DNA of 64,000 bases from Escherichia coli (GTDB taxonomy: Bacteria; Pseudomonadota; Gammaproteobacteria; Enterobacterales; Enterobacteriaceae). Location of the stretch: assembly GCF_003334315.1 (NCBI RefSeq), contig NZ_QOWR01000003.1, one strand, 5' to 3'. The notes under the pieces are model-generated. The model was not told the DNA's origin. It did no database searches and worked only from the letters and a program-made list of their open reading frames with translations. Shown here one piece after another: positions 25,184 to 25,418 of the stretch (its first letter is position 1; each line of letters starts with the position of its first letter). The translations under genes were made by a program, and so were the position numbers.

Positions 25184-25362
25184 TACCGCCTCTTATCGAT
25201 TCAACTTGTTGATAATTGTAGCGGAAAAGTGAGGAAGAAGAACTAATTGCTGTGAGAGGTCAAATCAGAAAAAGGAATAGCGCAGATTGAGGTTTTTGTA
25301 AAAGGCCGAATGAATATCCGGCCTGAGATTGCTGATAAGTTTGCTTGTGCGGGCCTGTTCCC

Positions 25363-25385
25363 CTCACCCTAACCCTCTCCCCGAG
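25363..25385. other. GC-rich stem-loop in the adk-hemH intergenic region
   Basis: CCCTCTCCCC-gag-GGGGCGAGGG, 10-bp stem with one mismatch, no flanking T-tract. Confidence 0.4.
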
Positions 25386-25418
25386 GGGGCGAGGGGACTG
25401 TCCGTGCGCGCTTTCGAA

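Follow-up and report, generated by a model that had tools for sequence, protein, structure and literature searches.

BoxC is a short, non-coding repeat dispersed through Enterobacteriaceae genomes at strictly intergenic sites; it was originally defined as a unit of about 56 bp and has 23 published copies in K-12. In the account given by Holder et al. (2015; PMC4666352), the TMECO motif is equated both with the BoxC repeat (Bergler et al. 1992) and with the PIT element (Hoyne et al. 2000). In a systematic survey of stem-loops (PMC2267715), BoxC likewise emerges as a family, with 22 members in E. coli. One and the same family thus bears four published names, BoxC (1992), PIT (2000/2002), TMECO (2015) and HPG1 (2016); it has been rediscovered four times. 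As single-stranded DNA, BoxC can adopt a hairpin, a purine-motif intrastrand triplex or a G-quadruplex in vitro (PMC4666352, PMC5100583). The work of Hoyne & Maher (2002), as summarized in PMC4666352, describes PIT as acting neither as promoter nor as terminator and as leaving RNA polymerase unaffected; arrest of DNA polymerase at PIT is described there as an in vitro phenomenon only. Proposals for what the structured DNA might do include "adaptive instability" (Holder et al. 2015, PMC4666352) and a "GQ-hairpin-duplex switch" (Kaplan et al. 2016, PMC5100583).

Two other classes of structured sequence invite comparison. Like BoxC, REP / BIME elements are short, GC-rich, imperfectly palindromic intergenic repeats that often lie in 3' UTRs. 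They differ from it in sequence, since BoxC has no similarity to the REP consensus and is built from a C block and two G blocks, and in number (about 20 copies of BoxC against about 500 of REP). Some REP elements modulate mRNA stability or transcriptional read-through. To our knowledge BoxC, unlike REP / BIME, has no RAYT transposase partner, does not bind gyrase or IHF and plays no mRNA-stabilizing role. Intrinsic terminators share with BoxC a GC-rich stem-loop past a stop codon, but BoxC has neither a U tract nor a mapped 3' end.

The palindrome considered here lies between adk and hemH in a 64,000-nucleotide stretch of E. coli DNA (assembly GCF_003334315.1, contig NZ_QOWR01000003.1), hereafter the window. 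It is a catalogued copy of the BoxC / PIT / TMECO / HPG1 repeat. The family has been known since 1992 and this very copy is present in two genome-wide catalogues, so that it carries little weight as a discovery. The allele frequencies, the position of the transcript 3' end and the outgroup state reported below are locus-specific additions; the population and evolutionary part is new in detail, not in principle.

Results

The adk-hemH palindrome is a BoxC copy

According to ORF translations and the MG1655 annotation, htpG (26244-28118), adk and hemH (25183-24221) follow one another on the - strand of the window. The adk gene extends from an ATG at 26063 to a stop codon at 25419-25421, and hemH starts with the ATG at 25183. 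Within the spacer that separates them lies the 37-mer CCCCTCACCCTAACCCTCTCCCCGAGGGGGCGAGGGG (+ strand, 25360-25396), singled out in an earlier reading made from the sequence only. The BoxC copy is accordingly intergenic, flanked by the adk stop at 25419 on one side and the hemH start at 25183 on the other; it forms part of the adk 3' UTR, in sense orientation, 23 nt past the stop codon and upstream of a terminator hairpin. The sequence-only reading had drawn the element at 25329-25400. It was right to place it between adk and hemH, but the interval is offset with respect to the conserved unit (Table 1).

Table 1. Features of the adk-hemH spacer in the window, with the sequences found at the equivalent place in other genera
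Feature	Window coordinates	Strand	Basis or remark
Whole BoxC unit, ~60-65 bp: the core with flanks of weak conservation, GnGCnCGAACGGTC (5') and GAACAGGCCnGCAC (3')	~25347-25411	-	Alignment of 11 type-A copies (MG1655 and window)
36-nt core CCCTCGCCCCCTCGGGGAGAGGGTTAGGGTGAGGGG	25360-25395	-	Exact consensus match; catalogue entries
C block CCCTCGCCC	25387-25395	-	Parsed against published consensus
Loop 1, CCTCG, after C block	25382-25386	-	Parsed against published consensus
G block 1 GGGAGAGGG	25373-25381	-	Partner of C block in the hairpin of the sequence-only reading and in the published triplex model (one G.A mismatch)
Loop 2, TTA, after G block 1	25370-25372	-	Parsed against published consensus
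G block 2 GGGTGAGGG	25361-25369	-	Watson-Crick/G-U partner of C block favoured by MFE folding; in the triplex model, the third strand
Intrinsic-terminator-like hairpin AGGCCGGAUAUUCAUUCGGCCU plus UUUA, 9-bp stem, U run of 4; outside BoxC	25299-25324	-	Fold and Term-seq 3' end
Allele-specific segment, 157 nt: BoxC, ~89 nt of single-copy sequence and terminator hairpin	25261-25417	-	Alignment, allele counts, outgroups
Conserved hemH-proximal block, ACCTCTCACAGCAATTAG...CGCTACAATTATC...TAAGAGGCGGTA	25184-25260	-	Common to both alleles and other Enterobacteriaceae
Just after adk stop in Enterobacter, Phytobacter and Pluralibacter: TCTCACCCGG...CCGGGTGAGAAAA hairpin			
Just after adk stop in Salmonella: TTGCCCGAT...ATCGGGCAA hairpin			
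Just after adk stop in Citrobacter: one to three REP units			

Read on the - strand from 25395 to 25360, the core is CCCTCGCCC-CCTCG-GGGAGAGGG-TTA-GGGTGAGGG-G. Positions 25361-25395 match exactly the consensus of Holder et al. (2015), CCCTCNCCC-N3-6-GGGNGAGGG-N3-GGGNGAGGG[G/T/C/-], for which 0 matches are expected by chance (100 shuffles). With TTA as loop 2 and a G at the N of the C block, the copy belongs to the class "type A mm". The identical 36-mer is entered under that class as TMECO no. 6 in Table 1 of Holder et al. (PMC4666352), on the sense strand at MG1655 497,843-497,878. When the window is mapped onto NC_000913.3 through the adk stop (25419 = 497,819), window position 25395 falls exactly on 497,843. 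Table S2 of the same paper gives adk as 23 nt upstream and hemH as 176 nt downstream, and a further supplementary table of sequences with genome coordinates again lists TMECO no. 6 at adk/hemH (PMC4666352). In Kaplan et al. (2016; PMC5100583) the same copy is HPGQ no. 15 of group HPG1, with its midpoint at 497,867. Between this copy and the published family there is no sequence-level difference: the 36-nt core (type A with one mismatch) is identical, and the flank signature, intergenic position and multi-copy spread are all alike.

That the element is distinct from the REP units of the window, as had been proposed, was also borne out. Four canonical REP units occur elsewhere in the window (14522-14555, 14623-14656, 21761-21794 (+) and 33246-33279 (-)), two of them about 100 bp apart in a BIME-like arrangement. 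The adk-hemH locus has no match to the REP consensus GCCGGATGCGGCG...CTTATCCGGCCTAC, and the idea of a REP remnant was rejected for that reason. A scan of 24900-25800 against Rfam at permissive E-values returned sub-threshold noise only, the top hit, an unrelated eukaryotic family, reaching 19 bits where the gathering score is 40 (E = 0.36); Rfam holds no BoxC family.

Folding of the element

The sequence-only reading described a 10-bp GC stem closed by a 3-nt loop. The palindrome and its GAG loop are there (25373-25382 paired with 25386-25395), but the 10 stem positions comprise 9 Watson-Crick pairs and one T.C mismatch (G.A on the other strand). Thermodynamic folding moreover prefers a longer hairpin on the transcribed (-) strand, UCCCCUCGCCC x GGGUGAGGGGA, in which the C block and G block 2 form 11 pairs, one of them G-U, with 4 additional inner pairs. 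Taken jointly, G blocks 1 and 2 supply four G3+ tracts and so constitute a canonical G-quadruplex motif, which is how Kaplan et al. (2016; PMC5100583) read them.

Folded as DNA, the 46-nt stretch at 25355-25400 reaches a dG of -13.7 kcal/mol (z = -3.84), a value equalled by 0 of 200 shuffles; such nearest-neighbour folding of BoxC DNA shows the hairpin component only. As RNA, a 131-nt stretch that includes both the BoxC and the terminator hairpins has an MFE of -47.9 kcal/mol, and its centroid structure keeps the BoxC stem. RNAalifold recovered the pairing of C block with G block 2 from 11 copies. It found no compensatory substitutions among these, because the core does not vary, and covariation therefore neither supports nor refutes an RNA structure.

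Distribution and conservation of BoxC

The sequence-only reading had suspected a member of another small repeat family and had suggested counting copies by BLASTN. An 86-nt query (window 25335-25420, - strand) hit 5,408 of the 5,426 complete E. coli genomes, the median genome having 15 places and the richest 26; 27 of the 72,983 places are plasmid-borne, and the matches to other loci cover query positions 14-74. The suspicion was thus correct, the element being multi-copy rather than single-copy and its family the one catalogued as BoxC/PIT/TMECO.

In MG1655, 17 further copies were found again at their published coordinates in 11 other loci, making 18 with the window copy. Both single copies and inverted pairs of type A with type B are represented, as is the original copy at fabI (envM). 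All 11 of these loci are intergenic, and many BoxC copies sit 10-55 nt past stop codons. The 64-kb window contains this one copy only. Alignment of 11 type-A copies reveals a 41-nt invariant stretch (window 25400-25360) between more weakly conserved flanks, whose consensus is GnGCnCGAACGGTC on the left and GAACAnGnCnGCAC on the right. Outside Escherichia, type A and type B copies were seen in Enterobacter, Klebsiella, Kluyvera, Phytobacter and Pseudocitrobacter. A core that is nearly invariant across copies and genera argues for a constraint at the level of the family, which might bear on propagation, structure or protein binding.

The adk transcript ends beyond BoxC

Transcript 3' ends were taken from the curated, thresholded Term-seq list of Adams et al. 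(2021; PMC7815308, Supplementary file 1), a list that might leave out minor processed ends at BoxC. This list contains a sole adk 3' end, at MG1655 497,939/497,940 (+), equivalent to window 25299/25298 and 61 nt beyond BoxC. The end is seen in all three conditions (LB OD 0.4, LB OD 2.0 and M63 glucose) and is immediately preceded by CAGGCCGGATATTCATTCGGCCTTTT and followed by A (PMC7815308). No curated 3' end falls anywhere across 497,820-497,929, BoxC included, and five further single BoxC copies (tauD, zntA, ycjD/fabI, tldD and yhfS) have none listed at their 3' edges. The real adk 3' end is therefore the next hairpin, at 25299-25324, and within the limits of a thresholded list these data show that adk transcripts read through BoxC.

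The palindrome is followed by no T/U tract on either strand, in agreement with the earlier statement that it is not a canonical terminator. With no U tract, no mapped 3' end and the adk end at a different hairpin, an intrinsic terminator at BoxC was rejected. A consensus terminator/promoter scan did not flag BoxC; the same scan also missed the real adk terminator hairpin, because its U run has only 4 bases. The alternative suggestion of an RNA stability element fared less well. A role of BoxC in RNA stability or 3'-end formation at adk is unsupported, because the Term-seq 3' end lies at the separate hairpin downstream and none lies across BoxC. This fits the published summary, in which PIT shows neither promoter nor terminator activity, as well as the finding that 46% of E. 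coli genomes do without the element.

Further downstream, a Rho-dependent termination region starts 5 nt into hemH, at window position ~25178 (MG1655 498,060, + strand there; Adams et al. 2021, PMC7815308, Supplementary file 2), which suggests that part of the transcription entering hemH is Rho-terminated.

Two alleles of the adk-hemH spacer

The spacer is dimorphic in E. coli. A 235-bp allele carries BoxC and the terminator, and a 131-bp allele is 104 bp shorter; the former is present in 2,913-2,914 genomes and the latter in 2,507, jointly 5,420 of 5,426. The lower figure for the BoxC allele counts genomes in which a 351-nt, spacer-spanning query was fully covered, while its allele-specific single-copy part (~89 nt, window 25260-25348) occurs in exactly 2,914 genomes, once in each. 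In the short allele the 157-nt segment is swapped for an unrelated 53-nt cassette, CAAGCCGCAGCAGATCTGCT(C/T)TCGGGCAGGTCTGCTCATCCTCCTCAGGCAAT, whose fold is a 12-bp stem-loop that lacks a U tract. K-12, O104:H4 and O26:H11 are among the carriers of the BoxC allele, and O157:H7, CFT073 and ST648 among those of the short one. Holder et al. (2015; PMC4666352, Table S3) had already scored this site, with 28 of 56 genomes unchanged and the other 28 changed.

Examination of 80 adk loci from species-representative genomes found the short allele, almost base for base, in E. albertii and in a second Escherichia representative; neither BoxC nor the 89-nt single-copy sequence was found downstream of adk in the outgroups, and a search of the 80 loci with the 89-nt sequence gave no hit. 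The BoxC allele is thus derived, the short one being common to E. albertii and the second representative, and it is dispensable. Direct comparison of the two alleles revealed no target-site duplication and no clean insertion of BoxC. What separates them is a replacement, and its occurrence without target-site duplication argues against simple transposition.

The ~80 nt that lead up to the hemH ATG are conserved across Enterobacteriaceae, more weakly in more distant genera, and include a TACAAT hexamer that resembles a -10 element; the block at 25184-25260 is presumably the hemH promoter and 5' UTR. The stretch just past the adk stop, by contrast, is lineage-specific (Table 1), and the first ~50-150 nt there make up a hypervariable slot. 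In Citrobacter, REPs hold the place downstream of adk that BoxC holds in E. coli. As the slot is hypervariable in genera that have no BoxC there, its variability does not depend on BoxC.

Discussion

The adk-hemH palindrome is one BoxC copy, and we consider it highly probable that it is a passenger in the adk 3' UTR that arrived through the 157-nt replacement and has no selected function at this site. The copy would have entered one E. coli lineage inside a 157-nt segment that took the place of the variable cassette 3' of adk. RNA polymerase passes through it and the transcript ends 61 nt on, at an ordinary hairpin with a U tract; in the RNA, BoxC could form a stable hairpin. Any effect would then be a by-product of BoxC structure, such as a transient stalling of replication or a local rise in rearrangement. 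Family identity, copy number, read-through, dispensability and the derived state of the allele are shown by the results above; that the passenger is neutral we infer from negative evidence, and some observations count against it. The core is conserved beyond what purely neutral sequence would be expected to keep, and triplex or G-quadruplex formation in vitro, together with the stalling of DNA polymerase, likewise points away from an inert sequence.

These latter properties are the starting point for viewing BoxC as a DNA structural switch, alternating between G-quadruplex, hairpin and triplex, that stalls replication or transcription or attracts proteins, and thereby regulates its neighbours or promotes local rearrangement. 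In vitro, CD and NMR revealed the triplex, whose Tm is ~74 C in a type A mm oligonucleotide that differs from the present copy only in loop 1 (PMC4666352); ion-dependent CD transitions have been described (Kaplan et al. 2016, PMC5100583), BoxC loci vary more than control loci (PMC4666352) and the adk-hemH locus is itself dimorphic. However, DMS footprints taken in vivo gave no support to a stable triplex, and with the complementary strand present it is the duplex that prevails (PMC4666352). The slot past adk is also hypervariable where it holds the hairpins of Salmonella and Enterobacter or the REPs of Citrobacter, and the E. coli alleles fall into two clean, nearly fixed classes (5,420 of 5,426 genomes) instead of the spectrum that ongoing rearrangement would leave. 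We regard a switch at this locus as improbable. A role at the RNA level, in which the BoxC hairpin blocks 3'-5' exonucleases or causes pausing or partial termination and so tunes adk stability and read-through into hemH, strikes us as very improbable. The sense orientation in the adk 3' UTR upstream of the terminator, a stable RNA hairpin whose stem is kept in the centroid, and the many copies lying 10-55 nt after stop codons would all suit such a role. Yet no curated Term-seq 3' end maps at or just past BoxC, be it at adk or at the five other copies; the published assays, as reported in PMC4666352, show no terminator activity or effect on RNA polymerase; BoxC copies favour neither orientation with respect to genes (Holder et al. 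2015, PMC4666352); compensatory substitutions lend the RNA structure no support; and about 46% of E. coli do without the element at adk, a housekeeping gene. As for the possibility that BoxC is a MITE-like mobile element that inserted itself here by transposition, its dispersed, multi-copy nature and conserved ends are in keeping with it, as are the pairs of inverted type A and type B copies present at five K-12 loci, which resemble terminal inverted repeats. An association of BoxC with transposons, phages or plasmids is unreported, though (PMC4666352), plasmids hold only the 27 of 72,983 BLAST places noted above, and a segment of 157 nt replacing 53 unrelated nt is neither a clean insertion nor accompanied by a target-site duplication. 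Insertion as a MITE is very improbable and was rejected on the latter grounds.

In practical terms, the element is best annotated as BoxC and not as a terminator or a new RNA motif; an sRNA reading of BoxC was likewise rejected. The natural two-allele polymorphism, situated at a highly expressed housekeeping gene, offers a ready comparison for the effect of BoxC on expression and stability. One could envision, although we think it rather unlikely, that the BoxC and the new hairpin/U-tract terminator of the derived allele altered the transcriptional coupling of adk and hemH in about half of E. coli, and that structured elements recurrently land in, or are exchanged at, the slot 3' of adk in Enterobacteriaceae. 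In that case both the formation of the adk 3' end and the read-through into hemH would depend on the allele, BoxC contributing as an RNA or a DNA structure.

Some minor observations concern the genes upstream of the element. In the mechanical ORF list the adk frame runs to an upstream TTG at 26123 (ORF 25419-26123), the annotated start being the ATG at 26063. A 530-aa ORF on the + strand (window 26217-27809), antisense to htpG, looks like a shadow ORF. The E. coli htpG-adk spacer (window 26064-26243) contains no BoxC. The same spacer in Phytobacter, Enterobacter, Pseudocitrobacter, Kluyvera, Klebsiella and Superficieibacter carries BoxC of type A and/or type B, sometimes as inverted pairs (locus positions ~188-1366 of 11 loci), and in several genera the element lies there at an equal offset, ~170 nt before the adk ATG.
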